DNA from: Dehalococcoidia bacterium
Lineage (GTDB): Bacteria > Chloroflexota > Dehalococcoidia > UBA2979
Direction of reading: 5' to 3'
Assembly (NCBI GenBank): GCA_963667465.2
Contig: CAXXDN010000002.1
Coordinates: 1,696,001 to 1,760,000 of the forward strand
Length of the DNA stretch: 64,000 nt
The first letter of the stretch is position 1. The number at the start of each line of letters is the position of its first letter. The notes under the pieces are model-generated. The model was not told where the DNA came from, searched no databases, and saw nothing but the letters and a program-made list of their open reading frames with translations. Below, piece after piece: positions 16,278 to 35,779 of the stretch. A program made the translations under genes and the position numbers.

Positions 16278-16325
16278 GGCACGCAACTCCTGTTCATTGC
16301 TGCGGATCCCCGGCGTCGTTCCGTC

Positions 16326-16355: not shown

Positions 16356-16398
16356 TACACCTCTAAGCAGAGAACGCCAACGAGGAGTCCCGCAGCCC

Positions 16399-16644: not shown

Positions 16645-16681
16645 GGTCGCTCCGCGCCTGTCGCACTACGCTGGCGGCCCC

Positions 16682-16954: not shown

Positions 16955-16958
16955 GGCC

Positions 16959-17222: not shown

Positions 17223-17367
17223 AACCGGTCGTCATGCCCGCCAACGCCGGCGTCCCGCACCACTGCATCCGTGCAGTGCCCTTCGGGGGATTACGGAACC
17301 ACCTCCCGTCCGGCCACGATCGAAGCGGCAGCACGCGTTCCGTGCGCGAACGCTACGGGAGTGGCCC

Positions 17368-17577
17368 GTGTCGAGCAGTAACGAGCACCCACTGGCCGGC
17401 CCGGCCACCGATGATGACCCCACGTCGTCCCGGATACGGGTCAGGTGGAAGTCTGGACCGCGGACGCGCGCCTGGGACGAGCTGTGGCGCTGGCTGCTCG
17501 CTCCCGACGAACTCCTTCCCCCTCGCTCCGAGGGAGCGTCCGCAAGCGGTGAGCGGGAACGGCGCCGAGGACGCTGA
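17368..17577 (+). CDS. Small protein upstream of recombinase (directionality factor candidate)
   Basis: GGGAG then GTG; RIRVRWKSGPRTRAWDELWRWLL; function suggested by position only. Confidence 0.45.
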   Translation: MSSSNEHPLAGPATDDDPTSSRIRVRWKSGPRTRAWDELWRWLLAPDELLPPRSEGASASGERERRRGR

Positions 17578-17691
17578 CCAGCGCCCCTCTCCCCGGCTCC
17601 CGCCTTCTACCCGGCCGTTTCGCTTGCCTCGACCGGTAGGCTGGAACGAGCGATGCCGATGACTCACATCCCCGACCCGACGGAGACTGCT

Positions 17692-19254
17692 ATGCGAGCA
17701 ATCATCTACTCCCGCGTCTCGACCGACGCCCAGGAACGCGACGGAACCTCGCTCGATACGCAGGAGCGCGCCCGCGACGAGGTGGCCGCCGACCGCGGCT
17801 GGCGTGTGGTGCGCCGTATCCGCGAAGCCGCGAGCGGCGGGATGCTCGAACGTGACGGCCTCGACGAGTTGCGGGAGGCGCTGCGAAGGGGAGAAGCGGA
17901 GGTGGTCGTCGCCTTTGCCGTTGACCGCCTCTCACGCAGCCAGAACCACATCGGCATCCTCTTCGACGAGTTCGAGCGCGCTGGCGTGCGCCTGGAGTTC
18001 GTGACCGAGCGCTTCGAGGACACGGCCGTGGGGCGCTTCATCCTCGCCGCGCGCGCGTTCATCGCCGAGGTCGAGCGGGAGAAGATCGCCGAGCGCACGA
18101 TGCGCGGCAAGGAGGAGCGGGCGCGCAGCGGGCGCCTCCCGCAGGCGTTCGGGCGCGGCTGCTATGGATACACCTACAACGCCGGCACCGGTCGCCGCGA
18201 GGTTGAGCCGTTCCAGGCTGCGGTCGTCCGGCGCATCTTCGAGCGCTACGCCGCAACCCGCAGCTTCTCGGCCGTCTCCAACGAGCTCAACGAGGCCGGC
18301 ATCCCCGCGTTCTCAGGGGGGCGCTGGTACCCGATCACCGTCCGTCGGTCGCTACTCAACGAGGCCTACATCGGCCGCACGGTGTACCGACGGACAAAGC
18401 GCGTTCGGGTGCCGGCCGCCGGGAGGCGCAGGCGGACGCGTGTCGTCGAGCGGCCCGAGGAGGAGCGGATCGAGATTCCGGACGCCACGCCAGCAATCAT
18501 CGAGCACGACCTGTGGGAGCGCGTCCAGGCGATCCTGAACGACCCCGAGCGCACGAAACGGCGTTCCACGCCGAAGCGAGACTACGTGCTGCGCGGCCGT
18601 CTGCGCTGCGGCGTTTGTCGCAGCGCGATGGTGGGACACACGCTCAGCGCCAAGGGCAAGAGCTACGCGTACTATCGCTGCCGTCACGCCTACGCTCGCA
18701 ACACGGGCCACCACTGTACGGCTCGCTACGTCCCGGCGGAGGCGCTGGAGCAAGAGATCCACGCCGAGGTGCGCAAGGTGCTTACCGCCCCGGAAGTCGT
18801 CCTGAGCGAACTACGACAGCAGGGCGGGTCGGACGCCGACAGTGAAGCGCGCGAGGGCCTTGAGGCGGAACTGGCGGCGCTCCAGAGGCGCGAGGAGCGC
18901 CTTGTGCGGCTCTTCGGCTACGACGAGGTCGACGGCGACGTGGTCCGCGCGCAGTTCCGCGAGGTGCAGCAGCGGCGGGCGATGCTCAACGGCGAGTTGG
19001 CCTCGCTCACAAGCGCCCGAACGCCGCTGGGTGAGGATGTTGATGAAGGGCTCCTTCATGAAGCGTGTGCAGCCATTGCCGCGCGACTCGATGAAGCCGG
19101 ACCGGCGAATCAACAGGTCGTGCTCGAGGCGATGCAGGTGAACGCCACCGCGACCCGCGAAGAAGTGACGATCGAGGGGATTCTGCCGCTCAAACCCGCA
19201 GAATCTGCTCAATCCTGCACTGAGTTTAAGACCATTGAACAAACATCGGTATGA
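17692..19254 (+). CDS. Large serine recombinase (integrase)
   Basis: IYSRVSTDAQ catalytic Ser motif, DRLSR, recombinase domain, zinc ribbon CGVC...YYRC...C, coiled coil. Confidence 0.95.
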   Translation: MRAIIYSRVSTDAQERDGTSLDTQERARDEVAADRGWRVVRRIREAASGGMLERDGLDELREALRRGEAEVVVAFAVDRLSRSQNHIGILFDEFERAGVRLEFVTERFEDTAVGRFILAARAFIAEVEREKIAERTMRGKEERARSGRLPQAFGRGCYGYTYNAGTGRREVEPFQAAVVRRIFERYAATRSFSAVSNELNEAGIPAFSGGRWYPITVRRSLLNEAYIGRTVYRRTKRVRVPAAGRRRRTRVVERPEEERIEIPDATPAIIEHDLWERVQAILNDPERTKRRSTPKRDYVLRGRLRCGVCRSAMVGHTLSAKGKSYAYYRCRHAYARNTGHHCTARYVPAEALEQEIHAEVRKVLTAPEVVLSELRQQGGSDADSEAREGLEAELAALQRREERLVRLFGYDEVDGDVVRAQFREVQQRRAMLNGELASLTSARTPLGEDVDEGLLHEACAAIAARLDEAGPANQQVVLEAMQVNATATREEVTIEGILPLKPAESAQSCTEFKTIEQTSV

Positions 19255-19350
19255 AGCTCCGGTCGTGCGAAAAAGGGTGCGCCAGGTTGTACCTGGCGCT
19301 CTCGTTCTGACGTCCGTCACGCCCGGCGCTCATGATCAGTCCTCGTGCGA
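19231..19350 (+). repeat. att-like repeat copy 1 (overlaps recombinase stop)
   Basis: ACCA-N16-ATGAAGCTCCGGTCGTGCGAAAAAGGGTGCGCCAGG; 36-bp core 19251-19286 is identical at 28248 and 34129. Confidence 0.9.
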
Positions 19351-19413
19351 CTCCTGCAGCCACACCTTCCACGTGGGCTTGGGTGCTCGTGTGCCTGAGC
19401 CGCCTTCGAGAGC

Positions 19414-19575
19414 CTAGCCTTTGTCGCGTTGGAGAAGCCTAGTGCAGTTGGAGCAGACTGGCTTGTCGCCGCTGCCCTCGATGCGTCGCGCCAGCGACAC
19501 GGTCTTCCAATCTGGGCATTCAGTGCTGATGTGGTGCGTGAATCCGCCTGCTGCGTGCATAGGGTTCATCCTCAT
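19414..19575 (-). CDS. Small putative metal-binding protein
   Basis: HH...C...GSGDKPVCSNC motif; start uncertain. Confidence 0.45.
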   Translation of the reverse strand: MRMNPMHAAGGFTHHISTECPDWKTVSLARRIEGSGDKPVCSNCTRLLQRDKG

Positions 19576-19796
19576 CACAGCCATCCTTTCGTCGGCCCAG
19601 CGGGCCTGTGTTGAGGGAAGCGCTCCCGTCTCGCACCGGACGCAGGCGCTGGCTCTCATGCGGGAGTGCCAGATCCTGTTCGCCAACGAACGCGAGGTCC
19701 AGTTTCTTGTGACGCTCTTTGGCCGATCGTGCCCGTGTCAACTCTGGGCACGCTGCATGGGGAGTGCGATTGTAGGCCACACGGCCGGCCTGCGCG

Positions 19797-20513
19797 TTAT
19801 GAGCCTGCCCTCTGCTCCCACCTCTTGAGCAAGCTGCCCCTGTCCCTGATGGGACCCCAGTCGAGGCCTCTGAAGCTGCGGTCGGCATTGATCCGCTCGA
19901 TGATGTCGCGCAGCACCGCAACGCCCGCCTGGGACCAACCGTTAGCCAGGGCCCACGGGACTATTTCGTCGGCGTTGAGATCATGATCCCACCGCCTGAG
20001 GTACTGAAGTCTGCGTATAGCGTCAGTCCGGTCTCGACCTGTTGCAAGGTCGTTTGCCAAGTTGACGACAGTTGTGATGTCCTCCATGGCGGCTAGTACA
20101 ACGCCGTCCCTGATGCCCGGAACGAGAGGCTCACTGGCGGGCGCAGTGACGTCTCGGGCCCCGCGAGCTGTTAGCCAATCCCGACAGCTGTCTTCCACCC
20201 ACTTCAGGATGCATACGGAGGTAATGCGCTCGGACCAGCGATCGATGCACTCAAGAACCTTGTCATCGGACCAAGGAGCGAGCACGGGACCACCCGGCCA
20301 GTCGTGAGGCGGGAAATTCCTCGGGATGCTCCACCGCACACCACTCGACGTGAGCGCGCGGATTACATCGTTCGATGACGCCTGCCTAGTCGTCGGCACA
20401 AGAATGAATGCAATGCCCTCGCGCGCATGCTCGGCGAGCCACCGCCTTCCCAGTTCGGCGGCCTGAGGGCTGCCGCCGAGCGCTTGGACGTGTGGAACGT
20501 AGTACACGAGCAC
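19797..20513 (-). CDS. Hypothetical protein (238 aa)
   Basis: Globular-looking ORF with GGGAGG RBS; no recognised motif. Confidence 0.65.
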   Translation of the reverse strand: MLVYYVPHVQALGGSPQAAELGRRWLAEHAREGIAFILVPTTRQASSNDVIRALTSSGVRWSIPRNFPPHDWPGGPVLAPWSDDKVLECIDRWSERITSVCILKWVEDSCRDWLTARGARDVTAPASEPLVPGIRDGVVLAAMEDITTVVNLANDLATGRDRTDAIRRLQYLRRWDHDLNADEIVPWALANGWSQAGVAVLRDIIERINADRSFRGLDWGPIRDRGSLLKRWEQRAGS

Positions 20514-20672
20514 CTGATACCTCCCGACCTATCCAGTTGCGGGTGTGCGGTCACAAGTCGCGTTCGGAGCGCTCACCGTGCTCTGCAGGGAGCGGACCCG
20601 CGCAGAACCAGAAACATGGGCCACTAAGTGCCAGGCCGGAGGAACTGATGGTCCCTGAGACTGGCTTCCCCT

Positions 20673-21251
20673 CTATCGTGGTGCAACTCGCTTGCGCTTC
20701 CGCGCCGCGTTCTGTCTCGCCACCCCGGTGACGTTCAAACGGTACCGCGCCATGGTCTCACTGACGCCGTGACGCTTTGCGATATCGCTTGCGGTCGCCC
20801 CTCGACGGATCTCCGCAAGGAGTAGCGGTCGAGGAAGGAGAAGGCACCCAGACAACCAGGCTGCCTCCTCCTCCTGAACAGGATCACAAGAGAGGAAGGT
20901 GACGTCGCCGAGCGTTTCGATTCGGCTCAGGTCGTGGTCGAGCAGGATGTGCCCGAGTTCGTGCGCAAGGTCACTCGCCCGGCGGGGGGGCGCAGACAGG
21001 GGATTGAACACGATCACTACGCGATCGTCTGAAGGACGGAACGTGCAGGCTGAGAACGCATCGGGCTGTAGCTCATCGAGGGCAACGAATCGGCTGCGCG
21101 GGATCAAGTCCTCTCCCGATCGGACCTCGACACCGAGGAGTTCCGCTAGGGCCTCGGGCGTGACCGGGTCAGCAGCCGCCAACCCGAGGTCCACCCTCAC
21201 GCTCTTCGCGATCCTCTCCGCTTCTGACTTGAACCCCCTACGAAGCGCCAT
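20673..21251 (-). CDS. ImmA/IrrE (CapP-like) metallopeptidase
   Basis: Intact LAHELGH and QEEEAAWLSGCLLLP. Confidence 0.9.
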   Translation of the reverse strand: MALRRGFKSEAERIAKSVRVDLGLAAADPVTPEALAELLGVEVRSGEDLIPRSRFVALDELQPDAFSACTFRPSDDRVVIVFNPLSAPPRRASDLAHELGHILLDHDLSRIETLGDVTFLSCDPVQEEEAAWLSGCLLLPRPLLLAEIRRGATASDIAKRHGVSETMARYRLNVTGVARQNAARKRKRVAPR

Positions 21252-21708
21252 CCTGTGATTCCCTCAAGAGCGCCTCGTGCAGGTCGTTCACCAGTTCCCC
21301 GAGGGTGTGAGCAGCGTCGGGCCTGAACGTCTTCGCTGCCCTCAGATGCACCGCCGCGACTCTTTCAGGACGGGCCAACGCCGCGTAGAGGTCCTTTACG
21401 ATCCCTGCGATTCGATCAGCCGCATCCGGGGGAAGATTGCGATCCGAGCGAAGGTGCTCCGCGATCACGTCAGTGGTCACCGCAGCTTTCTCGAGGGGCT
21501 CGAAGAACTCGGCGATGTCCGCCCCACACCACTCGACGAGACGCTTGAACTTCGGTAGGTCCGGTACGTGGCCTTTCTCGACTCGGGCCAGGGTGTTGAA
21601 CGGAATCCCGACGGTGTCGGCGGCCTCGCGGAGACTCATTCCGCGCCGGTTCCGCTCGGCCGCGACGAGCCGTCCTAGGTCACCGAGGTCGCGGTTGCCA
21701 GCCGCCAC
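21238..21708 (-). CDS. XRE-family (CapH-like) regulator
   Basis: RGMSLREAADTVGIPFNTLARVEKG HTH; overlaps the peptidase gene and is divergent from the Ubl operon. Confidence 0.85.
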   Translation of the reverse strand: MAAGNRDLGDLGRLVAAERNRRGMSLREAADTVGIPFNTLARVEKGHVPDLPKFKRLVEWCGADIAEFFEPLEKAAVTTDVIAEHLRSDRNLPPDAADRIAGIVKDLYAALARPERVAAVHLRAAKTFRPDAAHTLGELVNDLHEALLRESQDGAS

Positions 21709-21751
21709 ACGTCCCCCTGTGCGTAAAGTGGTACGCCGCACCAAGCGCAGT

Positions 21752-21804
21752 TTGACACAACTGGCCGCCGCGCGCTAGGTTGGTGCTGTACCGATTACGG
21801 TACA
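21752..21804 (+). promoter_or_regulatory. Promoter and palindromic operator of Ubl operon
   Basis: TTGACA 21752-57, TAGGTT 21776-81, then TGTACCG-ATTA-CGGTACA 21787-21804. Confidence 0.65.
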
Positions 21805-21837
21805 CCAGTGCACAAGTGGTTCAGAGGAGGATCCGCG

Positions 21838-22089
21838 ATGCCTGACGACAAGGACAAGATCACGATCATTGTGAACGGCCGCGAGCGGATCGTCACGTCG
21901 GACGAGCTCTCGTTCAGCGAAGTGCTCGCACTCGCCTTCGACCCGTTGCCTTCGGGTCCGAACTGGGAGTTCACCGTCACCTACCGTAACGGCGCTGGCC
22001 GCCCGCCCGATGGTCGGCTCCGCCCCGGCGGTCAGGTCAAGGTCGAGGACGGAACCGTCTTCAATGCCACCGCAACTGATAAGTCGTAG
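21838..22089 (+). CDS. Multiubiquitin-domain (Ubl) protein
   Basis: ITIIVNGRER...LSFSEVLALAF...FTVTY...VKVEDGTVFNATATDKS beta-grasp pattern; GAGGAGG RBS. Confidence 0.85.
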   Translation: MPDDKDKITIIVNGRERIVTSDELSFSEVLALAFDPLPSGPNWEFTVTYRNGAGRPPDGRLRPGGQVKVEDGTVFNATATDKS

Positions 22090-23236
22090 CCCCGATCTCC
22101 AGCGGCTCGCGGACGAGGGCTACGAAATCGAGGTGCGCGGCGGCCACCTCCTGCTGAAGCAAGTTCCCTACGTAACCGAGGAGCGTGTCGTCGAGCGCGC
22201 CACTCTCGTCTCCCCACTCGACCTCGCAGGGGATGTCGCTGCCCGCCCGAGCAGTCATGTCGTGATGTTTACTGGGCGGGCACCGTGCAACAGCGACGGG
22301 AAGCCTCTAAGCAACATCATTCATTCTGCTGGTCAGTGGGACCTGGGCGGCGGCCTGGTCGCTCGGCACAAGTTCTCAAGCAAGCCGGCAGCCGGCTACG
22401 CGGACTACTACGCGAAGATGTCGACGTACGCGGAAATCCTGTCCGGCTACGCGCAGGCCATCGACCCTGCAGCGACGGCTCGGACGTTCATTGTGGTCCC
22501 CGAGGAGGACACAAACTCGGTGTTCCAGTACGTCGATACAGCGTCGAGCCGGTCCGAAATCGCTGCGATCACAGAGAAGCTCACGCTCGCTGCGGTAGCG
22601 ATCGTTGGGCTCGGGGGCACGGGATCGTACATTCTCGATCTCGTCGCGAAGACGCCGGTCGGCGAGATCCACCTCTTCGACGGCGACGTCTTTGGCCAGC
22701 ACAACGCCTTCCGGGCTCCCGGCGCGCCATCGGTCAACGTACTCAGGGCACGACCCAGGAAGTCCGACTACCTCCGCAGCATCTATTCCAACATGCACCG
22801 CAACATCATCGGTCACGGCTACCTCGATCAGGGCACAACCGACATTCTGTCATCCATGGACTTCGCGTTCGTGGCCGTGGATGACGCCGATGCCAGGAGG
22901 CTGGCGGTCGAGACGCTGCTGGGCGCCGGCGTACGGTTCGTCGATGTGGGGATGGGTGTTAGCGAGGTTGACGGGGCGTTGCTCGGGCAGTTGCGAGTCA
23001 CGTCTGCGACGCCGGACGACCGCGATCACGTTCTCTCGACGATCCCACTTATGCCCCCACCCGGGGATGACGACTATTCGCAGAATATCCAGATCGCGGA
23101 CCTCAACGCGCTGAACGCCGCCCTCGCCGTCCTTAAGTGGAAGAAGCTCATGGGGTTCTACCTGGATCTGGGACAGGAGCACTCCAGCTGGTACCAGATT
23201 GACGGCAACCACCTGGTCAATGAAGCGCGAGCATGA
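22064..23236 (+). CDS. DUF6791 (E2-like) + ThiF/E1 fusion
   Basis: LISRSPDLQRLADEGY N-domain; IVGLGGTGS nucleotide loop; DGD...HNAFRAPG. Confidence 0.85.
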   Translation: MPPQLISRSPDLQRLADEGYEIEVRGGHLLLKQVPYVTEERVVERATLVSPLDLAGDVAARPSSHVVMFTGRAPCNSDGKPLSNIIHSAGQWDLGGGLVARHKFSSKPAAGYADYYAKMSTYAEILSGYAQAIDPAATARTFIVVPEEDTNSVFQYVDTASSRSEIAAITEKLTLAAVAIVGLGGTGSYILDLVAKTPVGEIHLFDGDVFGQHNAFRAPGAPSVNVLRARPRKSDYLRSIYSNMHRNIIGHGYLDQGTTDILSSMDFAFVAVDDADARRLAVETLLGAGVRFVDVGMGVSEVDGALLGQLRVTSATPDDRDHVLSTIPLMPPPGDDDYSQNIQIADLNALNAALAVLKWKKLMGFYLDLGQEHSSWYQIDGNHLVNEARA

Positions 23237-23598
23237 GCCGTAGAGCGGCCCTCGATCACGAGTTCGTCCATCACATCCCAGAGCATCTTGCCGATGGGGT
23301 GCTGTACGTCTCTGTCGCCTTCGCGACGGCCCTGCACAGGTGTTGCTGCGGATGCGGCAACGAGGTCGTGACCCCGCTCAGCGCACACGATTGGAGCCTG
23401 ACCTTTGACGGCGAGTCGATCTCTCTCTGCCCGTCGATAGGCAACTCGAGCTTCGAGTGCCAGTCGCACTACTACATCCGGCGCAACAAAGTCATCTGGC
23501 TGCGCTCCTTCGCGGAGACGGAGTCCGAGCCACGCCTGCCTCTCTGGCGGCGGATCGTGCCGAGGTGGCTGAAGGTGCCGAGAGCGGGTCGAGGGTGA
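23233..23598 (+). CDS. DUF6527-family protein
   Basis: HRCCCGCG..VVTPL...W...PSIGN...CQSHY; ATGA overlap. Confidence 0.85.
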   Translation: MSRRAALDHEFVHHIPEHLADGVLYVSVAFATALHRCCCGCGNEVVTPLSAHDWSLTFDGESISLCPSIGNSSFECQSHYYIRRNKVIWLRSFAETESEPRLPLWRRIVPRWLKVPRAGRG

Positions 23599-23683
23599 CC
23601 CGCGCGAAACTCGGAGACACACGTTGAGGGTCGACCAGTGAGGCAACACTAGCCCGGCGGCCCGCAAGCTCAGGGTATGAACC

Positions 23684-24550
23684 ATGGCTGAAAACGCTGA
23701 ACCGCGACCACCCTTTCCTGCAGACTACGAATCCTCGCGCCGGCGAGTCACATTGGCGCTCGTCGCGTACCGCTACAACGACTTCGCGAGGCTGCACCAG
23801 ATGCTCACTTGGTGCGATCCGCGAGTCCCGCGCAACTGGTCAAGCTGGGCTCCCCTCTTCCTCCCGGCTGTGCTTCTCGTGATCATCGGGTCAGTACTCG
23901 ATCACGCACGTGTGACTGATGCGACGGAACTTGCAGCTGCACTCTTCCTGCTTGTCGGGATCCCCTTCTCGTACGCGTTCCTCGTTGGGTTTCCACTGGC
24001 TTGGCTACTGACGAGTGCGCTCAGCCCCCAAGTTAGAGCGTCCCTCGAGCGCCGAGTGCGTGAGTGCTTGGTGACGTTCTTCGATCTGTACGGCAAATCG
24101 ATCCCCACCGGAGACGGAAATCGAGGCTCGCTCACCGCATTGGGGGACGACCTAGGGCCCGTGAATCGGCCACGCCCGAGCCTATCGGCCTGGAGTAAAG
24201 CCTGGGTGCTCCTCATCGGCACCTCTGCGGTGTTCGTGCGCAGCTGGGTTGGAGACGGGAGCGATGCGGAATCGCTTACCGCGTTCGTTGAGGCATCGTC
24301 CTCGTCCTGGAGCATTCCTGCGCTCCTGATTGGGCTCTCGCTCATCGTCACCTCGCGCTTGGCCGAACAGGCAAACCGCGATCTCTATGAGGCTGAACTG
24401 CAACCCCCACTGAAGGAGCTGTCCGCAGAGTTCGGGAATGTGGCCGACTTGGCTCGATACCCCGGTTCTCTTGTGACCGACGTTGTCGGTGTGGCGGGGG
24501 TGGCCTTGGTCACAGCGGCGGTCGTGGCACTCGCCGCGAACCTAACGTAG
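23684..24550 (+). CDS. Hypothetical multi-pass membrane protein
   Basis: About five hydrophobic segments; no recognised family. Confidence 0.6.
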   Translation: MAENAEPRPPFPADYESSRRRVTLALVAYRYNDFARLHQMLTWCDPRVPRNWSSWAPLFLPAVLLVIIGSVLDHARVTDATELAAALFLLVGIPFSYAFLVGFPLAWLLTSALSPQVRASLERRVRECLVTFFDLYGKSIPTGDGNRGSLTALGDDLGPVNRPRPSLSAWSKAWVLLIGTSAVFVRSWVGDGSDAESLTAFVEASSSSWSIPALLIGLSLIVTSRLAEQANRDLYEAELQPPLKELSAEFGNVADLARYPGSLVTDVVGVAGVALVTAAVVALAANLT

Positions 24551-24733
24551 CGACGGTACACGCAGCCGGCGTGGCGAGAGCTCCACGACGGGACGCGCAT
24601 CACCCCTGGCGCGTGAGGTCCAACATCCTGAGCTGAACCCCGCCCTACGAGCTCGCGCGGGGGCAAGCCAGTGCGTGCCAGCTGGAGCAGGGTTTGCTAG
24701 CATCCACGCTAGAGGAAACGACGGGGAGGGTGC

Positions 24734-24964
24734 GTGCCTGAGCCACAGAACGTGACAGACGCCGAACCTGCCGAGGTTGGCCGCACGATGGCGAACCAGC
24801 TGCTAGCGTGGCGCCCAACAATGAACTCGGAAGATGTATCGAGAGCCATGATGCGTGCTCTTGAGCACTATTCCGCACGAACTGAAGGATCGTCTGAGTC
24901 AGGACTCCGAGGGATCATCTACCACTTGCAAGATGCCCTGGAACAGCGGCTGAAGTCCATCTAA
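24734..24964 (+). CDS. Small hypothetical protein
   Basis: GGAGG RBS before GTG; helical-looking sequence. Confidence 0.45.
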   Translation: MPEPQNVTDAEPAEVGRTMANQLLAWRPTMNSEDVSRAMMRALEHYSARTEGSSESGLRGIIYHLQDALEQRLKSI

Positions 24965-24973
24965 GGGGCAGGC

Positions 24974-26182: not shown

Positions 26183-27015
26183 GGTCGAGCCTCCTCAACA
26201 GGAGCAAGCCGCCCCACGTTCACGCGGAGATTCCAACGCGAGACGATCCGGCCTTCCCGCGGGCCGGCAGGATCGAGCCAGCTCAAGCCACGAGTGATCC
26301 GGCTGTGACACGCGCCGATGAAGCTCGTGTCCGCAAGCTGCTGCCGCTCCACCAGGTACCCGAGCCGCTTGAAGACGGTACCGCGGCCCAGCCGGTCGCC
26401 GTACTCCAGGAGACGTGCTGGATCGGCACCGGCACTCTCGAAGTACGTGGTGAGGACTTCGGAGGCATGCAGCGCACCTCCCGCCGCACCCGGCACGTCG
26501 AGAACATCGATGATGGTGCGGTGTGGGTCGGACACATCGACAGCCACCTGTCGGCGCCAGACACGCCGCGTGCCGAACAGTGCCTCCCTGGGCACGCTCC
26601 GAATGGTGAAGTCCGTACCCTGAACCAACTGTCGAGTAGGCGTGACCTTCTTTCCAGCGACGACGTAGATGACGCTGAAGATCTGGTCCGTCAGCCCCCA
26701 GTGCTCTGCGGCGCTCCAACCTCCGATGTAACCTGGACTGAACAGGGTTGCGGCCACGATCCATGGATCTTCTCGCCACTCGCTCGGCTCGGAGGCCTCA
26801 AGCGGGACTGCGATGTACCAGCCTGGGCGCACACGCGAGAGCCAGCCGCCAGCAGCGAGCGCCGCGAGCAGACGGCGCGTGGGTCCGATCGCCGTACCGA
26901 GCACCGACGCTGCCCGAGTGGCGTTGAACGGACCAGGGAACCTCCGATGAAGCACGGCCAGCTGCGCTCGCCGCCGACGCCCGAGGCCGGCTGCCAAGCT
27001 GCCCTCGCGGTACAT
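26179..27015 (-). CDS. AbiEi type IV antitoxin
   Basis: N-terminal wHTH (GWLSRVRPGWY), YIGGWSAAEHWGLTDQ, SDPHRTIID, KRLGYL; GTGA-coupled to AbiEii. Confidence 0.85.
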   Translation of the reverse strand: MYREGSLAAGLGRRRRAQLAVLHRRFPGPFNATRAASVLGTAIGPTRRLLAALAAGGWLSRVRPGWYIAVPLEASEPSEWREDPWIVAATLFSPGYIGGWSAAEHWGLTDQIFSVIYVVAGKKVTPTRQLVQGTDFTIRSVPREALFGTRRVWRRQVAVDVSDPHRTIIDVLDVPGAAGGALHASEVLTTYFESAGADPARLLEYGDRLGRGTVFKRLGYLVERQQLADTSFIGACHSRITRGLSWLDPAGPREGRIVSRWNLRVNVGRLAPVEEARP

Positions 27016-27317
27016 CGTGACTCGATTGTCTTCTGTAAGACTGGACACTTTGCCCTCGCAATGTAGGTCAGTATATCAGAGGACGTGACTTTTCTTCCAT
27101 AGAGTGGACTGTGGACTTTCAGTATACCGAGGCCCTCCTCCAGAACAGCGACCCGAGATCCCGACGCTCACCGCGAACGAGCTCGAATCGGGTAAGGATG
27201 CCGCCCACGGCGCTCTTCCGGCTCACCCCAGGAACTCCGGGCCCAGACATCGGCGAGGCGGTGATGTAATGTCGGTACTTATTGACATCGTCCAACGTAT
27301 CAAAGCACTATCGGACC

Positions 27318-27920
27318 ATGAGCAAAGCGGGCACGGAAGAGATCCTCGACCTCGTGCGAGAGGCCGGGCTGGTACGTCCGCGCGACCTCGAGTCGGCCGG
27401 CGTTCCGGGAGGCTCCCTCGCGCAACTGGCGCAGAGAGGTCTGCTGGAGAGGCTCGGCCGTGGCCTGTATGCGGTGCCCGGTGCCGCACCAAGTGAGCAC
27501 CGCTCGCTCGCGGAGGTCTCGAAGCGGACGCCACGAGCGGTAGTCTGCCTGCTCTCGGCACTGCGCTTTCACGGACTCACTACCCAGGCGCCGGCCGAGG
27601 TCTGGCTGGCGATCGGGCCAAAGGATCGGGCCCCGAGGGAGCACAGCGTGCACCTGCGGATCGTGCGCGCCTCGGGCGAGGCGCGCGATGCAGGCGTCGA
27701 GACACATGTCGTCGAGGGCGTGCCTGTCCGCGTCTACGGTGCGGCGAAGACCGTGGCGGACTGCTTCAAGTTCAGGAACAAGATTGGCACCGACATCGCT
27801 GTCGAGGCGCTGCGCGACTGCCTCGAACAGCGCCGCTGCACCGCCGACGAACTCTTCGAATACGCTCGCGTCTGCCGCGTCTCGCGCGTGATGCGCCCCT
27901 ACTTGGAGGCACTCGCATGA
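27318..27920 (+). CDS. Orphan AbiEi-family antitoxin
   Basis: LERLGRGLY, CLLSALRFHGLTTQ, KTVADCFKFRNKIG, RPYLEAL; no toxin gene downstream. Confidence 0.85.
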   Translation: MSKAGTEEILDLVREAGLVRPRDLESAGVPGGSLAQLAQRGLLERLGRGLYAVPGAAPSEHRSLAEVSKRTPRAVVCLLSALRFHGLTTQAPAEVWLAIGPKDRAPREHSVHLRIVRASGEARDAGVETHVVEGVPVRVYGAAKTVADCFKFRNKIGTDIAVEALRDCLEQRRCTADELFEYARVCRVSRVMRPYLEALA

Positions 27921-27939
27921 GTCCCGAGCTTCTGTGGTC

Positions 27940-28190
27940 CCTATCGACGCCCGGGCGGGACGCGCCTGATCGGGGGTTCCGAGACGAAGGCGTCTCCTTC
28001 GGGGCTCGCGACTGCCGCTTCAGCGCCGTGAGAGCCTCGATGAGTTCCGGGGCCTCGCACCGCCCGGCGTCTTCGACAGCGAGCTGGCATGCGCTCGCGA
28101 AGAACACGATCCAAAGGCTGACACCGGCGAGGGCCCGCTCGGAATCGGGCGCGCCTTCGTAGGGCGTCTCTGAGATGCCCCTACCAAGGG
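27940..28190 (-). pseudogene. Fic 3' relic with internal deletion
   Basis: Minus strand YEGAPDSERALAGVSLWIVFFASAC...EAPELIEALTALKRQ aligns by eye with the C-terminus of Fic at 32795-34066; ends approximate. Confidence 0.7.
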
Positions 28191-28227
28191 CGCTGACACC
28201 CTCCGAGACCGCCAACCGCGATTTCTC

Positions 28228-28310
28228 ACCACGGGAGGAAACAAGGCATGAAGCTCCGGTCGTGCGAAAAAGGGTGCGCCAGGCTGTATCTGGCGCTCTC
28301 ATTCTGAGGC
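28228..28310 (+). repeat. att-like repeat copy 2
   Basis: 36-bp core at 28248-28283, with ACCA exactly 20 nt upstream as in copy 1. Confidence 0.9.
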
Positions 28311-28486
28311 GCCGAGCTGCGCGGCGCTCCCGTAGTCCGAATCCTCGCGGGGCGACCCCGCCCGTTACCCTCTCCGGCAGACGGTGCCGCTCGTGGCGAG
28401 CGTGGCAGGGGTGGCGCACACCCGCGTGGATCCCTCTCCGGCTTGCTGCTCGTTCCTCCAGCGGGAGTACCGAGGAACATTGATAG

Positions 28487-31400
28487 TCACTCAAGGGGAG
28501 TAGAGCCCGTCGTCTCGGCATGACCTGCCTCGGACTCCGACTCGTCAGGTGGAGGCTCCGGTGGTTCTGGTTCAATCCCGAGAGCGTCAGCGAGTCTGCG
28601 CACCGCCTCAGAAACCTCTTCACCTTCTCCCGTTGGGTCCAAGGCCCTGCGCACCCGACTGCGGAAGTCTTGGACAGCGCTCCGGTCGCTGTGCTCCCCA
28701 AGAAGGTCCGGTGCCGAGCGGAACACGTCCGCGAGCCAACTGAGGCCGTTGGCATTGTTCTGGACAAGGAACGGTCGGCACACACGGTCGACGAAGCCGC
28801 GCTGCGTCAGCAAGAAGGCCTTTTCGGCGACGAGTCCGCCGTAGAGGTCGAAGAATGGCCTCGTCGCCGTTCCATCAGCCCCCTCGAGGGCCTCATACGC
28901 GCGGCGAGTCAGTAGATCCTCGTTCTCGTCACCCAGGACTTCCACTAGCTCGGGTAGAGACTCACTGATGCCGCTGTCGCCATCCGCGCTTACGGCCGCT
29001 TGAGCGTGTGACGTGAGGCCATCCAGATAGTCCGTTCCCAGCTCAATGGTCTCGCGGCGCCGGTGTAGTTCTAGGACTAAGGCAACGAGGTCATCGTTCT
29101 CCTTGAGCGACTCAGCCCAAGTTTCCGCTGCAACGGACCGCAGGCCGACAGCGCACCAGGCCGATAGCGCTTCATCATCACCGGCTCGCAGGATGGCCAA
29201 GTAGAGTGGAGCGCCACTTGGCTCGAACCGCCCAGTGACGATCAGTGCCGAAACATCGGTCCGTGACGGCAAGCCCCGCACGAATTCTTGGAATGCATCG
29301 GTAGCGTCGCCGTCTTCTGGATCTGGCAGATTCGACCGGATCTTGCCCCAATGCCCCTGGACAAACCCGGAATCGTTCACGGCTGGATCATCGTCGATCA
29401 GATCCCTGAAGGCCTCATTGAGCAACGTGGGTTCGGGTGGCTCCTCGTCGAGGATGCGCGCCAGCTCTGGTAGCCCTCCCTCTTGGCGGGCGATGGAAAC
29501 GAATTCGTCGAGCGCACCAGGCACGCTGTCCGGATTGCGCAACAACTCAAGAAGCGGCTCATGCCCGAGCGGCGAGTTGCCGATGTGTTGGTTCGGCTCC
29601 CGGGCGTCAGGAATCGACTGGAGGTACGCGAACGCGCATCTGGCCGTGGCCTCGGCGTGCGCCTCGGAGACAGCCTGATACAAGTGGTGGAGCAGGGATC
29701 CCTCCGTGGCAAGGCGCTCGTAGCTTGCGTTGTCGACGAGACCCGCAGAGCGGCAAGCTGTCAGCGCTCGCATCACCAGTGCGATCTGTTGAGCACCCAC
29801 TCCTTCGGCGTTCCGGACGCTGTCGAACAACTGGTTCGTGGTACGCGTGAGTGACCCTGTAGCCGGGGTGCGCAGGGTTACTTCGAGCAGCGAGATGATG
29901 TCGCTGTCAATCTGCTCCGGTGTGCTGCGCTCGGAGAGGGCAGTATCGATCTCTTCCGCTTCTATCAGCTCAAGCCGCTGCCACAGGCGTCCGCCCGGGT
30001 CGTCGCTCCGGAATTGCGGAGCGACTTCCAGCCATTGATCCGCGGACAGCGGTACTCGGAGTGCCGAAGCGACGCCGAGTTCGTCCAAGCCTCGAAGCAG
30101 GACGAACGCCGCACTCATCCACCCATGAGGGGACACTTGCGCGCCGGAGGGCTCCTCCTGCTCCTGTTGGACGCTAGCCGCAGCAACCGCGCTCAGGAGT
30201 TGCTCAGTGAACGAGGTCTCGGTACCGGCAACCCGGCAGAGCGAGACCAATCCCCCGGCGGCCTCCTCGGTGAACGGCTGCCACGCCCTTACTGCGACTG
30301 CAGCCGCGCTAACACGCTCCAGAACCGATGCTGCTTCCCGGCGCTGCGGCGGAGCCGAGTCTCCGAAGAGCCCGCTCGTGTCTAGCGCCGTCGCTGCCCG
30401 CGCGAAGTCTTGCGGCCCTACGTCACCCCATTCTCCGGCGCCAGCCGGGACCGAGTCTTCGAAGACGGCCCAGAATCCGTCGCCATGAGCGGCTTCCAGT
30501 GCGCGCAGTGCTTCGCCGTCAGCAGCGCTGAGGGCGGTCTCGATCGGGTCTCTGAGGACCATCTCTCTGGCTTGCCTGATTGGAGCATTGAAGTAGAGGA
30601 CTGCCAGGGTGTCCCGCCACCCGTCCCCAAGCAATTCCTCCGCGAACAAGGCGTCTTCGTTTCCTGCCGCGGAGCGAAGTGCTGTCTCCGCAACTTCATC
30701 ACGCTGGAGCAGCACGAAGCAGGCGAGGTCCGAGAGCGTAAGCCCGTCTGCGTGCTGCCACTGCCGATGGACCGCGCCGAGCTCATTGACGAACAACTTC
30801 AGATCGCGCGGTTTCGGTTTCGCAGCCTCGAGTCCGCTGCGCAATGCGAAGGCGCGGTAGACACCGTGGAAGTCCTCCTCCGAGTGCTCCGGCAAGGCCT
30901 CGGCGAGGGCCGCGCTGAGGTAGTTGCGCCAGTTCGATATGGCTGGAGGTGGGATTCGGAAGCGGATCTGGAAGGTCTTGTCGAGGAAGGACTGGGCGAC
31001 CGCACCCTCGCGCTCACCCGTGATGCCGTCGCCCCATAGACTCAGGATGCCGGTACGGTCGAACGGGACGAGTACCCAGAGTCGGCGAAACCACTTTGGG
31101 CGTTCGTGCTCGCTGTACTGCAGGAAGGTCTGTAGGGTCGACCATACGGCCAGCGCGTTTTCGGGATCCACGCGATCGAGGTTATCAATCGCCAACACCA
31201 ACTGACGTTCCCCCTCGTCTTCAAGGGCCTCGTCGCAGAGATCCCGGAAGATGGATTCGAACTCCACGGAGGTGGGATCGTGCGTCTCAGTGACCAATGT
31301 CCGGCTCTCCGTAGTGGATTGGCCCGTTACCAATGCGGGCAATCCGCCTGAGTGGTCGTCAGCCGCCTTCGCCCCGCATTCGCCACGGCGGCGCACCCAT

Positions 31401-31993
31401 CGGTGAATCCCGGCCGCCGTAAGAACGAGAAGCGGGGCCAGAACCCCAACGAGACCAATCCCGAGGAACCGGGCCGCGCCGACAGTTGATGGGTTCTCAG
31501 CAGTGAGCGCCGTCGCGCCTGCCGCGATCAGGGCCGATCCGGTTGGGATCGCAAGTAGCGAGAGCGCGAAGGCGATCCCGTACCGGGTAAGCTGCGGAAT
31601 CACGCGCTGAGTCTCTTCGCGCCGTCGCTTCGTCAGGTGCTCAACGCGCTTATCCCAGTTGTCACGATGGACCCAGCCAGCGTCCTGCATATGCCGGATG
31701 AGCTTCTCAAGGAACGTCCGCCGAAGAGGGTCTCCCTGGTGTGCCCACACGTCGAATACGGCAACACGCGTGTTCCCCGCACCGCCTTCTTCGAGCCTTT
31801 GGGTGACAAGCGTCACGACCGTGGACTTGCCTGCACCCCAGCCTCCTTCGAGACCGATGGCCTTGCCGCCACCCTCGTGGCGAACAAGATCAGCGATGGC
31901 CGTGGCGAGTCGGTCGTGCGGACCACCGAACGTGTCCTCAGCAGCGGGCTCATCAGAAAGAAGCCGTGTGCGGCAGTGGTTCGAGTCGGTCAC
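28487..31993 (-). CDS. KAP-family P-loop NTPase with TM insert and long C-terminal helical region
   Basis: LLSDEP, Walker A GGWGAGKS, FDVWAHQGDPLRR, two TMs, Walker B LVLAIDNLDR, FLDKTF, PRDLK. Confidence 0.9.
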   Translation of the reverse strand: MTDSNHCRTRLLSDEPAAEDTFGGPHDRLATAIADLVRHEGGGKAIGLEGGWGAGKSTVVTLVTQRLEEGGAGNTRVAVFDVWAHQGDPLRRTFLEKLIRHMQDAGWVHRDNWDKRVEHLTKRRREETQRVIPQLTRYGIAFALSLLAIPTGSALIAAGATALTAENPSTVGAARFLGIGLVGVLAPLLVLTAAGIHRWVRRRGECGAKAADDHSGGLPALVTGQSTTESRTLVTETHDPTSVEFESIFRDLCDEALEDEGERQLVLAIDNLDRVDPENALAVWSTLQTFLQYSEHERPKWFRRLWVLVPFDRTGILSLWGDGITGEREGAVAQSFLDKTFQIRFRIPPPAISNWRNYLSAALAEALPEHSEEDFHGVYRAFALRSGLEAAKPKPRDLKLFVNELGAVHRQWQHADGLTLSDLACFVLLQRDEVAETALRSAAGNEDALFAEELLGDGWRDTLAVLYFNAPIRQAREMVLRDPIETALSAADGEALRALEAAHGDGFWAVFEDSVPAGAGEWGDVGPQDFARAATALDTSGLFGDSAPPQRREAASVLERVSAAAVAVRAWQPFTEEAAGGLVSLCRVAGTETSFTEQLLSAVAAASVQQEQEEPSGAQVSPHGWMSAAFVLLRGLDELGVASALRVPLSADQWLEVAPQFRSDDPGGRLWQRLELIEAEEIDTALSERSTPEQIDSDIISLLEVTLRTPATGSLTRTTNQLFDSVRNAEGVGAQQIALVMRALTACRSAGLVDNASYERLATEGSLLHHLYQAVSEAHAEATARCAFAYLQSIPDAREPNQHIGNSPLGHEPLLELLRNPDSVPGALDEFVSIARQEGGLPELARILDEEPPEPTLLNEAFRDLIDDDPAVNDSGFVQGHWGKIRSNLPDPEDGDATDAFQEFVRGLPSRTDVSALIVTGRFEPSGAPLYLAILRAGDDEALSAWCAVGLRSVAAETWAESLKENDDLVALVLELHRRRETIELGTDYLDGLTSHAQAAVSADGDSGISESLPELVEVLGDENEDLLTRRAYEALEGADGTATRPFFDLYGGLVAEKAFLLTQRGFVDRVCRPFLVQNNANGLSWLADVFRSAPDLLGEHSDRSAVQDFRSRVRRALDPTGEGEEVSEAVRRLADALGIEPEPPEPPPDESESEAGHAETTGSTPLE

Positions 31994-32231
31994 AGGCGGC
32001 AACTCGATACCCGGCTTAAGAAGAAGGAGACATCGCCGAACGTCGAGGGCATGGATCCCCCTGTGGTGCCACGGTGGGGAGGCCTGGCTCAAGGATACTT
32101 GGAGAGGCAGCAATGCGGGCGCGAGCGAAGCGCACCCGAACCCCTACGGCGCGCCCTATGGTCGCCCTCCGGGCGCCAACCCGTGGCGTCAGCCAGTTCC
32201 GCCACATCCGCCCGAACGCTCCCGACACAAC

Positions 32232-32257
32232 GCGAGCGGCGCCGTCGGGCCGCTCGC
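32232..32257 (-). terminator. Possible terminator hairpin
   Basis: GCGAGCGGC-N8-GCCGCTCGC directly after the stop of 32258-32464; weak U tract. Confidence 0.35.
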
Positions 32258-32464
32258 TCAGTTGCTGGTGCGGGGCAGCTTGGCGGGCAGCACTTCACGT
32301 AAGTGATTGAGCCGCTTCATCAGCAGGTCATCCCCGATGCTGTTGTAGTCGCGCGCTGCTGCAAGATCGCGGTACTCACGCCACAGCATGGTGTCGGCGA
32401 GCCTGTCGAGTGCTTCGGCGATATGAAACAAATGAAGATTGTTAGACTCGTCGAGATTCGTCAT
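32258..32464 (-). CDS. Small hypothetical protein (68 aa)
   Basis: AGGAAAGG RBS before ATG at 32464. Confidence 0.5.
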   Translation of the reverse strand: MTNLDESNNLHLFHIAEALDRLADTMLWREYRDLAAARDYNSIGDDLLMKRLNHLREVLPAKLPRTSN

Positions 32465-32794
32465 CTGCGCGTCCTTTCCTGACCGCGTAGACTCTCGCAC
32501 GCCACCCCGCAGCGGCACAACTGCGCACGTCGCCCCGGGATAGTTTCCATTCACTTCCCGATGCCCTAATCCCGTCGCTGGTAACCCGTCGCCCTTGGCG
32601 ACGAGTGGCGTGATGGCCCGGTTGACGTACGGGCTGATAGGTCTTTCTGGATGCGGTGGCCCTCGGGTCGCCCCGTCTCCTGCGACCCGAGCTCGCGTAG
32701 CGGGATCCCAGCGGGTCGTGCAGGCGACCCTAACCTCCGATAGCACGGCTCCATATAGGAGGTTATCTGGTAACATTCAGCACGAGAGGTTGAT

Positions 32795-34066
32795 ATGGCT
32801 GGCTACGAGCGCCGACAGTGGCAGGGGAGCCCGACCGGGCAGACCTACCGCGAGCGGCGGCCCTGCAACTACGACACATACCTGCCGGATCCGCTCGCCG
32901 GCCGCGACTTCGCGCTCTCGGGCGAGGTAACCGCGGATGTCGCCGCGGCCGAGGCCGCGCTCGTGCGTCTCGATGAATCGGCTACCGCGCTCGCCGGCAC
33001 CCGCTCCCTCGCCCGACTGATCCTGCGCGCCGAATCTGTCGCGTCGTCTCGCATCGAAGGACTGGTGGTCGGGGGCCGGCGGCTGCTCCGTGCCGATGCG
33101 GCGCGCCGTCTCGGCAATGACCCGCGGGATCGTACGGCCGAGGAGGTGCTGGCCAACATCGACGCAATGTCGATGGGCGTCGAGACCGTGGGGCCGGGCG
33201 ACCCGATTGAGCCGGCTGTCCTGCTGGAGATGCACCGCCTGCTGCTCGCCGGCACGCCGCTTGAGGAGCACGGCGGGCGACTGCGAGACCAGCAGAACTG
33301 GATCGGAGGCTCCGGGTACAACCCGTGCGCCGCGGCGTTCGTACCGCCACCCCCCGAGATCGTGGAGGACCTGTTCGATGACCTCTGCGCCTTCGCCAGC
33401 GCCGATGCGTGGCCACCGCTGGTCCAGGCAGCGATCACGCACGCGCAGTTCGAGACCATCCACCCGTTCGTGGACGGCAACGGACGCGTGGGCCGTGCCC
33501 TGATCCATCTGGTGCTGCGGCGCCGCGGCCTGGGCCTCCGCGTCCAACCGCCCATCTCACTGGTGCTGGCGACATGGTCTTCGGCCTACGTGTCCGGCCT
33601 GACCGCGACGCGCTACGTCGGGCCGCCCGACAGCGCCGAAGCGCGAGACGGCTTCGACCGCTGGGTCGCGCTCGCCGCCGAAGCCTGCCTGCGTGCCGCG
33701 GGCGACGCTGCGCGCTTCGAGGAGCGGGTGCAGGCGCTCCAGGCGGAATGGCTCGAGCGAGCCGGTCCCGCGCGGCGCGACTCGGCGCTCCGCCTGCTCA
33801 TCGACACGCTCCCCGAGGCGCCCGTTCTGACCGCGTCCGTCGCCGCGGATCTCATCGGCCGCTCGCAGCGAGCGACGAGCCAGGCGATGGACCAACTGGT
33901 GCGCGCGGGGATCCTGGTCCAGATCACAGTCGGCCGACGCAATCGGGCGTTCGAGGCGCCCGAACTCATCGATGCGTTCACAGCATTCGAGCGAGGTCTC
34001 GCGAGCCCGGAGGGCGATACGGCCATCGCGGATCCCTCACGCCCTGTGCCCCAGCGGCCGAACTGA
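32795..34066 (+). CDS. fic: Fic-family protein with C-terminal HTH
   Basis: Canonical HPFVDGNGRVGR; ESVASSRIEG inhibitory-type motif. Confidence 0.95.
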   Translation: MAGYERRQWQGSPTGQTYRERRPCNYDTYLPDPLAGRDFALSGEVTADVAAAEAALVRLDESATALAGTRSLARLILRAESVASSRIEGLVVGGRRLLRADAARRLGNDPRDRTAEEVLANIDAMSMGVETVGPGDPIEPAVLLEMHRLLLAGTPLEEHGGRLRDQQNWIGGSGYNPCAAAFVPPPPEIVEDLFDDLCAFASADAWPPLVQAAITHAQFETIHPFVDGNGRVGRALIHLVLRRRGLGLRVQPPISLVLATWSSAYVSGLTATRYVGPPDSAEARDGFDRWVALAAEACLRAAGDAARFEERVQALQAEWLERAGPARRDSALRLLIDTLPEAPVLTASVAADLIGRSQRATSQAMDQLVRAGILVQITVGRRNRAFEAPELIDAFTAFERGLASPEGDTAIADPSRPVPQRPN

Positions 34067-34108
34067 GCACGATTGCCTCGCCCCCAGAGCACCGAGGGCC
34101 GGTTTCTC

Positions 34109-34228
34109 ACCACTCGAACAAGAGGGGTATGAAGCTCCGGTCGTGCGAAAAAGGGTGCGCCAGGTTGTCTCTGACGCTGGCGTTCTGAGGCCCGTCGCAC
34201 GCGGCGCCTATGATCGGTCCTCGAGCGC
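34109..34228 (+). repeat. att-like repeat copy 3
   Basis: 36-bp core at 34129-34164; similarity to copy 1 continues to ATGATC.GTCCTCG. Confidence 0.9.
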
Positions 34229-34631: not shown

Positions 34632-35024
34632 GTGACATCGACACCCGTTGCCCGCCCGGACTACGAAGCTCATGTGCGTGCCACCCGCTCGACGTTCCCC
34701 GAAGTAGTTCGCGAGGTACGCGATATCCTCGGCCCGAGGCTCTGCGCGTACCTGGGCTCGGTCAAGGAAACGCGCGCTGTCCACCAGTGGGCGGACGGTT
34801 CGCGCAAGCCGAACGCCGATGTCCAACGGCGGCTGCGCACCGCGCTGCAGGCTGCCGCCCCGATCGCCGCCGCGGACTCGGCCGCCATCGCGCAGGCCTG
34901 GTTCCAGGGGCTCAACCCGCAACTTGACGACCGCTCCCCGCTGCGCCTGCTCCGCGAAGGCGATCTCGACGAGGTGGGCCCCGAGGTGATCGGCGCCGTG
35001 CGCGCCTTTCTGGCGGGCGGATGA
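34632..35024 (+). CDS. Xre/MbcA-like antitoxin
   Basis: HTH region then AQAWFQGLNPQLDDRSPLRLL; ATGA-coupled to the RES gene. Confidence 0.8.
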   Translation: MTSTPVARPDYEAHVRATRSTFPEVVREVRDILGPRLCAYLGSVKETRAVHQWADGSRKPNADVQRRLRTALQAAAPIAAADSAAIAQAWFQGLNPQLDDRSPLRLLREGDLDEVGPEVIGAVRAFLAGG

Positions 35025-35708: not shown

Positions 35709-35779
35709 CCCCAACTGAGTCCAGATCGTCGTCACCGCCGGCGACAAGAAAGCCGTCACACACGGGCGGGCCGCGACAG

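Follow-up and report, generated by a model that had tools for sequence, protein, structure and literature searches.

Staphylococcal cassette chromosome (SCC) elements insert at the 3' end of rlmH/orfX by means of the serine recombinases CcrAB or CcrC, integrative and conjugative elements (ICEs) of streptococci such as ICESt1 and ICESt3 are found in accretion with cis-mobilisable elements (CIMEs), and integrons combine the integrase IntI and an attI site with cassettes that carry attC sites. Here we compare with such systems a 64,000-nt stretch of the genome of a Dehalococcoidia bacterium (contig CAXXDN010000002.1, positions 1,696,001 to 1,760,000; hereafter the window), in which the gene of a large serine recombinase (LSR), LSR1, runs into the first of three copies of an attachment (att)-like repeat with defence genes between the copies. 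The genome itself (2,966,484 bases) is referred to as G000, and contig coordinates are marked C2.

The closest precedent is the group of ssrA islands of Dehalococcoides, with the serine recombinase DsiB (PMC3146451). As described there (McMurdie et al. 2011, PMC3146451), these islands stand in tandem and are bounded by 20-bp repeats of the 3' end of the transfer-messenger RNA (tmRNA) gene, and the dsiB gene, for a serine recombinase of ~540 residues, overlaps the att site, so that its stop depends on the junction. Some of the islands have no integration module, and the paper treats these as cis-mobilisable elements that became joined through accretion. It judges the elements to be mobilisable and not self-transmissible, and it mentions SCC elements as well (PMC3146451).

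We consider it very probable that the three repeats in the window are the junction (att) sites of LSR-encoding conjugative elements that target the 3' end of dnaN and have gathered there by tandem accretion. The process is of a known kind; dnaN as its target is new to the literature found, and a full-text search (paper supplements lay outside its scope) for islands or integrases that use dnaN in this way returned no relevant account.

A repeat unit at the end of a serine recombinase gene

An exact 36-mer occurs in the window at 19251-19286, 28248-28283 and 34129-34164, always on the + strand and in direct orientation, just as a preliminary description of this DNA had reported. No further match was found in the window with up to three mismatches allowed, and 0 of 100 shuffles matched. 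The whole genome has the 36-mer at these three places only, and an nhmmer profile adds one partial match, which is the real 3' end of dnaN. Similarity among the copies extends past the 36 nt to ~126 nt, with 61-80% identity, and we describe the repeat as a unit of ~110 nt that consists of a left arm, a core with a near-invariant GG, and a conserved right arm that is open on the + strand as a 19-codon open reading frame (ORF). The alignment of the copies also displays the other features noted before, namely an ACCA 20 nt upstream of every 36-mer, a variable middle between the two, and the inverted repeat GCGCCAGG-N5-YCTGRCGC, which is present in the three window copies and lost in diverged copies of other genomes. 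At 19000 the GC content drops from ~0.72 to ~0.63, and it remains low up to the window end.

Of 52 distinct copies, 44 have the GG at -3/-2, and the axis between its two G bases gives the highest number of complementary pairs (9.79 of 24; the range for 18 other axes is 3.96-8.06). The sites of serine integrases have a central dinucleotide within an imperfect dyad of 40-50 bp, and from these two facts together we would place the crossover at or near the GG.

The first copy contains the end of the recombinase gene, as had been noted: the LSR1 stop codon is the TGA inside the ATGA that opens copy 1, and the last LSR1 codons are antisense to a copy of the DnaN tail, described below. No recombinase ORF precedes copies 2 and 3, again in agreement with the earlier account. 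LSR1 has an N-terminal resolvase catalytic domain (PF00239 Resolvase, E = 2.1e-30, residues 16-161), followed in its C-terminal half by Recombinase (PF07508, 3.8e-25) and Zn_ribbon_recom (PF13408, 2.6e-13) matches. With an element end that maps to the site and a GG on the best dyad axis, LSR1 is a predicted attP x attB recombinase.

LSR1 is the integrase of a type-IV-secretion conjugative element of ~27 kb, here called ICE1, which encodes both a VirB4-type ATPase and a VirB6/TrbL-type channel protein; no coupling protein was named among the Pfam matches of its ORFs. A copy of this ICE in the relative G074, whose recombinase is 96% identical, aligns with the window at 94% identity over 4023 bp. 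The homology ends exactly at 19254, inside the ATGA, where dnaN follows in G074, and the sequences beyond are unrelated. The right end of ICE1 is therefore the start of copy 1, and the proposal that the repeat is an attachment-type site of the recombinase is supported.

We compared 99 genomes of this Dehalococcoidia family, belonging to 21 genera. The 36-mer with up to three mismatches is present in 8 of them, and a sequence-only covariance model built from 19 copies finds matches in 31 genomes from 12 genera, with up to 8 per genome, both clustered and dispersed; the suggested search of the core across relatives thus did recover it. A degenerate pattern scan of one genome per species (185,579 species) returned nine stretches, all titled Dehalococcoidia bacterium. 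Fifty loci were fetched, in which nhmmer located 63 unit matches. An LSR gene ends in or at the unit in 7 of the 63; four diverged LSR genes (~44% identical where measured) place their stop in the same ATGA, and three more are fused or fragmentary at it. For most copies in other genomes, no LSR lies 5 kb or less away, and among the 88 nearest neighbour ORFs of copies elsewhere the commonest Pfam matches are LSR domains (5-7 members) and transposases. Direct arrays of 2-4 copies at 2-8 kb spacing recur in five genomes (G074, G076, G078, G080 and G085), and left-arm, right-arm and downstream types are mixed in varied combinations across genomes. In the units of ten loci (L024, L064, L065, L069-L071, L076, L077, L087 and L089), many of the differences that break the frame are located in the A-run or G-run directly after the invariant core, which could be due to homopolymer errors of the assemblies or to real length variation.

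DnaN tail copies in the left arms

Throughout the family, the minus strand of the unit left arms encodes P-M-F-V-Q-W-stop, and the copies differ from one another at wobble positions. The DnaN protein of G000 ends ...HVVMPMFVQW-stop, inside the "left arm" of a partial unit, and 20 of 22 genomes read share the C-terminus VVMPMFVQW; of the other two, one has FVAW and the other is truncated at a contig end. The left arms of copies 1, 2 and 3 read IPMFVQWS-stop, MPCFLPW-stop and IPLLFEW-stop, so that direct copies of the target gene's 3' end, as the DnaN tail or degenerate forms of it, mark the borders as in genomic islands, and the ACCA is the antisense of the Trp codon beside the DnaN stop. When units were aligned with dnaN ends, either occupied or without a nearby LSR (alignment A5), the two were colinear through ACCA..CATCGGCATGACGAC; past this point the units continue as the conserved right arm and dnaN as its own coding sequence. 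Beyond the CATGACGAC core, nhmmer sees no homology between the right arm and dnaN past ~+16.

An LSR gene is convergent to dnaN and overlaps its 3' end in 9 of the 22 genomes. These recombinases are 95-97% identical to LSR1 in G073, G074 and G082, 73% identical in G069, and ~50% identical in G000 itself, G072, G080, G011 and G075; in 13 of the 22 no recombinase was found in the 3.5 kb downstream of dnaN. Where an LSR1-type integrase stands at dnaN, in three genomes, the tail is ...QWS-stop, and the left arm of copy 1 encodes the same, indicating that the tail at an occupied site comes from the element. At the loci with an LSR1-type ICE at dnaN (L122, L139 and L104), DnaN has one extra C-terminal serine (...FVQWS), and the last codons of the recombinase and of DnaN lie on opposite strands of the same ~25 nt.

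To the right of the window, G000 has an intact dnaN at the end of the array, co-oriented with the repeats, and between it and copy 3 lie a second conjugative element, ICE2, and its recombinase gene, LSR2. Over 112 kb, ICE1 is followed by copy 1, block A, copy 2, block B and copy 3, and then by cargo, ICE2, LSR2 and dnaN; blocks A and B are the intervals between the copies, and the low-GC cargo between copy 3 and the ICE2 backbone measures 31 kb. The end of ICE2 and dnaN are 70 kb right of copy 3, and all sites at this dnaN locus are co-oriented with the three copies.

Simpler loci are found in two relatives. In G072 and G069 a single 44-47-kb element consists of a unit, 10-14 kb of low-GC cargo, an ICE backbone (TrbL and VirB4, with a relaxase homologue in G072 also), an ImmA and helix-turn-helix (HTH) pair, a recombinase, the dnaN tail and dnaN, such that both element ends are visible. 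By the logic of site-specific insertion, the unit there would be attL, in which the native tail, once displaced, adjoins the element's left-end arm (P'). G077 has an 11.4-kb island with no LSR, flanked by a unit on one side and by dnaN on the other. Thirteen genomes have dnaN and a covariance-model match on one contig, and in 6 of these a co-oriented copy lies at most 150 kb downstream of dnaN, at 70-85 kb in G000, 11 kb in G077, 44 kb in G072, 47 kb in G069, 53 kb in G068 (a weak match) and 135 kb in G075 (a partial match). The second ICE at dnaN, together with the single unit-to-dnaN elements of two relatives, leads us to read the window as a probable case of tandem accretion, and the locus fits the second of the two readings offered in the preliminary description, "scars of tandem integrations by related elements". 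A blast search of the flanks of units from G072, G077 and G069, plus L059 from G068, against G000 gave nothing useful.

Two other readings of the unit were set aside. It was at first read as a free-standing micro-gene serving as attB, which was revised after the dnaN tail and the single-element loci had been found, and a resemblance of the left arm to the 3' end of tmRNA was dropped once the dnaN tail explained that arm.

Gene content of the locus

The features of the locus are listed in Table 1. The genes of the two intervals are those named before, a Ubl-type operon and AbiE in block A and a KAP NTPase and Fic in block B, as judged by Pfam and PADLOC; the N-terminus of the KAP protein has in addition a weak PifA/QatA-like PADLOC match.

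Table 1 Features of the dnaN-proximal locus, in window positions or, where prefixed C2, contig coordinates
Feature	Position	Strand	Basis or remark
ICE1, window part	1-19254	+	Pfam; backbone start ~8 kb left of the window, near G000:C2:1687960
TrbL/VirB6-like	3888-5237		Pfam
VirB4/TraC-like ATPase	7183-9948		TraG P-loop/AAA_10/TraC matches
Replic_Relax relaxase-like	11777-14329		sole relaxase-type match, E = 6.2e-07
Gp49/HTH pair	14476-15115		Pfam
ImmA-like M78	15472-15912	-	
HTH	15909-16505	-	
HTH	16959-17222		
Unnamed ORF	17173-17577		
LSR1, 533 amino acids	17653-19254	+	integrase of ICE1
Repeat copy 1	19225-19310	+	left arm 19225-19247 = ICE1 P arm; GG 19248-19249; right arm = 19-codon ORF 19251-19310; conserved extension to ~19366
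Block A	19311-28221		Pfam, PADLOC
ImmA/HTH pair	20673-21744	-	block A
DUF6791-ThiF E1-like	22010-23236		block A
DUF6527	23233-23598		block A
ORF	23684-24550		block A
AbiEii	24974-26182	-	block A
AbiEi	26179-27048	-	block A
Orphan AbiEi	27282-27920		block A
Repeat copy 2	28222-28307	+	GG 28245-28246; ORF 28248-28307
Block B	28308-34102		Pfam, PADLOC
KAP-family NTPase	28487-32113	-	block B
ORF	32258-32776	-	block B
Fic protein	32795-34066	+	block B; PADLOC SoFic model, E = 1.7e-71
Repeat copy 3	34103-34188	+	GG 34126-34127; ORF 34129-34188; conserved extension to ~34227
Low-GC cargo right of copy 3	34189-64000		GC profile, Pfam; runs on past the window to the ICE2 backbone
Xre/RES pair	34632-35824		
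Helicase	37416-39224		
IS21 element splitting an AbiEi paralogue	43890-46313		
ICE2 backbone	C2:1761145-1799990		72-86% identical to ICE1
LSR2	C2:1798449-1799951		52% identical to LSR1; Resolvase 1.9e-32; followed by partial unit
dnaN	C2:1799984-1801117	-	three beta-clamp Pfam domains

Most of block A (20661-28310) is 98.35% identical to G074, where it also has a unit on each side and adjoins a different LSR (39% identical) and different downstream DNA. The segment 19317-20660 (1345 bp, with a minus-strand ORF at 19797-20513) is absent from G074. The Fic part of block B (32620-34189) is 93.9% identical to G074, and in both genomes it runs up to the stop codon of copy 3. The expectation that gene content changes at the repeats is thus borne out by the comparison with G074, with the exception of one block boundary, at 32620, which is not at a repeat.

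G074 has at least four copies of the conjugation backbone (~11 kb, window 3378-14284), and G076 and G080 have several; such multi-copy backbones are ample substrate for homologous rearrangements between ICEs. The left junction of ICE1 was first placed at a GG followed by GCACGACG, which comparison with G073 did not confirm. Elsewhere in ICE1, two 286-nt segments (903-1188 and 1642-1927) are 81% identical and lie in the minus-strand ORFs 697-1203 and 1427-2200, which look like tandem paralogues and match no Pfam family.

Pairs of an ImmA-like (M78) and an HTH gene occur twice, beside the recombinase module of ICE1 and as the first gene pair in block A, where it looks like a regulation module retained from an element since lost. 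The DNA for the C-terminus of Fic (33940-34020) resembles, as its reverse complement, 28013-28051, just upstream of copy 2, and the paralogue of that segment at 46699-46781, forming an inverted patch of ~80 nt near two units. At 43634-46783 lies a paralogue of the orphan AbiEi gene together with the DNA downstream of it; it is 86-93% identical to 27350-28011 and is split by a 2.4-kb IS21-family insertion sequence with 31-nt inverted ends (IstA 44744-46252 and IstB 43992-44747, both minus); G080 has at least 20 copies of this IS21-family element at ~91% identity.

ARAGORN calls a 94-nt tRNA-Ala(ggc) at 32118-32211 (-), between the KAP NTPase gene and the next ORF. This call is probably spurious, because no Rfam tRNA match at the gathering score was found anywhere in the window. 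A tRNA or tmRNA target was rejected, the window having this one doubtful call and the tmRNA gene being elsewhere (C2:765203-765557).

Of the nine public runs listed, contigs of four were compared with the window. The runs, labelled sponge metagenome, contain most of the 112-kb stretch, and the contigs cover the blocks without differences. One contig of one run has a joint that goes back from 27929 to 19243 (the letters between are not known), which is more simply explained as a strain variant than as a circle.

Tandem accretion, its alternatives and known systems

In the reading that we favour, each unit has three parts: a DnaN tail copy, which is the native tail after displacement or one brought by the element to the left; a short core with the near-invariant GG, where crossover would take place; and the conserved arm from the left end of the element that follows on the right. 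Elements would have inserted serially at the dnaN junction, each pushing older ones away from dnaN, and the junction would stay usable because each element brings its own tail. Internal junctions would then read tail copy, GG, left-end arm. Copy 1 would be the junction of ICE1 and block A, and copy 3, by analogy with the single elements of G072 and G069, would be attL, the left end of the segment made up of ICE2 and its cargo. Blocks A and B would be integrase-less remnants or passengers, like cis-mobilisable elements, with defence and toxin-antitoxin genes. The data show the site structure, the exact right end of ICE1, LSRs at dnaN in relatives, and single elements that extend from a unit to dnaN; the insertion order, the loss of integrases from blocks A and B, the precise crossover point and any present-day mobility are inferred.

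Several observations weigh against this proposal. The left junction of the ICE1 backbone has neither a unit nor a dnaN-tail copy, and one further rearrangement has to be assumed there, which is plausible between multi-copy ICEs. Among the ORFs scanned, blocks A and B have no integrase and no detectable integrase remnant, and the Fic block shared with G074 begins away from any unit. The tails of copies 2 and 3 are degenerate, having in common with the native tail P, F, W and the stop (copy 2) or P, W and the stop (copy 3), and sequence alone cannot fix the crossover within a shared core of ~11 to 30 nt. Conservation of the right arm covers 60 nt, up to the + strand stop, more than an integrase half-site needs, and integrase binding alone leaves both the conservation past ~25 nt and the open frame unexplained. 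Seven of the thirteen genomes with dnaN and a match on one contig (G076, G078, G079, G085, G004, G003 and G082) have no copy near dnaN, and secondary sites or later rearrangements are therefore needed; in other genomes, many copies are distant from dnaN. Finally, contigs from the public short reads end at the repeats, so that the block order is that given by the assembly and neither a circle nor an empty-site junction was observed.

The preliminary description had offered an integron-like array as one possibility, in which LSR1, alone or with a directionality factor, captures and excises defence cassettes as circles from a working platform. Block A is indeed bounded by units in two genomes with different neighbours, and both the mixing of arm and downstream types and the recurrence of direct arrays in five other genomes are what such a platform might leave. 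However, the adjacent recombinase is a serine enzyme, no tyrosine IntI-type integrase family was found among the 30 ORFs scanned (14476-40595), and neither a common promoter nor an attI was identified. The supposed cassettes are multi-gene, carry genes on both strands and lack an integrase, the boundary at 32620 is off-site, the unit in G072 and G069 is the far end of a whole ICE, and a circle junction was not seen in the contigs, where alone it was sought. Serine integrases moreover pair unlike sites (attP with attB, attL with attR) and not like with like, which we count against this idea. We judge it improbable, and the claim that one recombinase captures single cassettes is not supported by the data, though such capture may have acted on the small blocks.

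Another possibility is that the unit is primarily a small gene for a 19-residue peptide, or a repeat resembling repetitive extragenic palindromes (REPs) or miniature inverted-repeat transposable elements (MITEs), with its adjacency to recombinase genes and dnaN incidental and the shuffling due to homologous recombination. An exact 19-codon frame from the invariant ATG to the stop is kept in 31 of the 63 matches (30 distinct sequences; the count required the frame), the pairwise ratio of nonsynonymous to synonymous substitutions (dN/dS) is lowest in that frame (0.52, compared to 0.68-1.76 in the five others), one copy swaps TGA for TAA and so keeps its stop, and diverged copies preserve a similar peptide where the inverted repeat is destroyed; the dispersal of up to 8 copies per genome, most with no LSR nearby, would also fit. 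But about half of the 63 matches are partial or frameshifted, often in the A/G run, no consistent ribosome-binding spacing was found among the unit copies, and not even wobble positions vary in the 10-nt core, a sign of constraint at the DNA level. A REP- or MITE-like motif, which had been named as grounds for abandoning the att reading, would be dispersed genome-wide with no link to recombinases, whereas G000 has three clustered copies and the dnaN end, the stops of diverged LSR genes converge on one ATGA, and the left arm copies the DnaN tail. An RNA element fares no better: a scan of the whole window at Rfam gathering thresholds matched no family, and a hairpin or terminator was rejected after 19 units had been folded (consensus -6.9 kcal/mol), with compensatory changes in 0 of 16 predicted pairs. 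We therefore regard a primary role as small gene or dispersed repeat as highly improbable.

Tandem accretion at dnaN could still be combined with a coding role, and the 19-codon frame may be translated. In a tentative and rather unlikely extension, the right arm would be both an integrase-binding arm and a real 19-codon gene, joined to the integrase gene through the ATGA only in a circle or, as at copy 1, where the element follows another one. The peptide, or read-through into left-end cargo, would then be turned on by excision or tandem insertion, which would couple recombination state to expression, and the units would let an ICE integrase move integrase-less defence blocks.

Tandem accretion at dnaN explains how, in the genome of an uncultured Dehalococcoidia bacterium, a 112-kb stretch beside this gene gained two conjugative elements along with stacked defence and toxin-antitoxin genes. 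It makes dnaN one of the few essential genes at which serine integrases are known to insert, and provides natural site pairs for several diverged integrases (~50-97% identical) that are testable as recombination tools. It also gives a second example, within the class, of the accretion pattern known from the Dehalococcoides ssrA islands.

Among known systems, integrons share with the window a direct array of ~100-nt sites separating cargo beside a recombinase gene. Here, in contrast, the enzyme is a serine and not a tyrosine recombinase, the sites copy the tail of a chromosomal gene, and the blocks are multi-gene, on both strands, with their own regulators and no conserved folded-strand signature. 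ICE/CIME accretion in streptococci likewise places a conjugative element beside an integrase-less element that keeps its att sites, with at least three direct att copies and cargo between them, but uses tyrosine integrases and an identical core, whereas here the integrase is an LSR and the arms differ between sites. The SCC elements resemble the locus in their serine recombinases acting at the 3' end of a conserved gene, in composite arrays separated by sites and in the lack of a recombinase in some elements; they differ in phylum and target, in having the ccr genes inside the element and not across the att site, and in having no conjugation genes.

The likeness is greatest to the ssrA islands (PMC3146451): the bacteria belong to the same class, the islands stand in tandem downstream of a single-copy essential gene and are bounded by repeats of its 3' end, the serine recombinase gene overlaps the att site, and some islands have no integration module. 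The target here is dnaN, however, in place of the tmRNA gene, and the unit is ~110 nt long with a conserved non-target arm and a 19-codon frame, compared to a 20-bp repeat in the ssrA islands (PMC3146451). Furthermore, the integrase here belongs to a type-IV-secretion element of the self-transmissible type, and the cargo consists of anti-phage and toxin-antitoxin genes where the ssrA islands carry reductive dehalogenases (PMC3146451).

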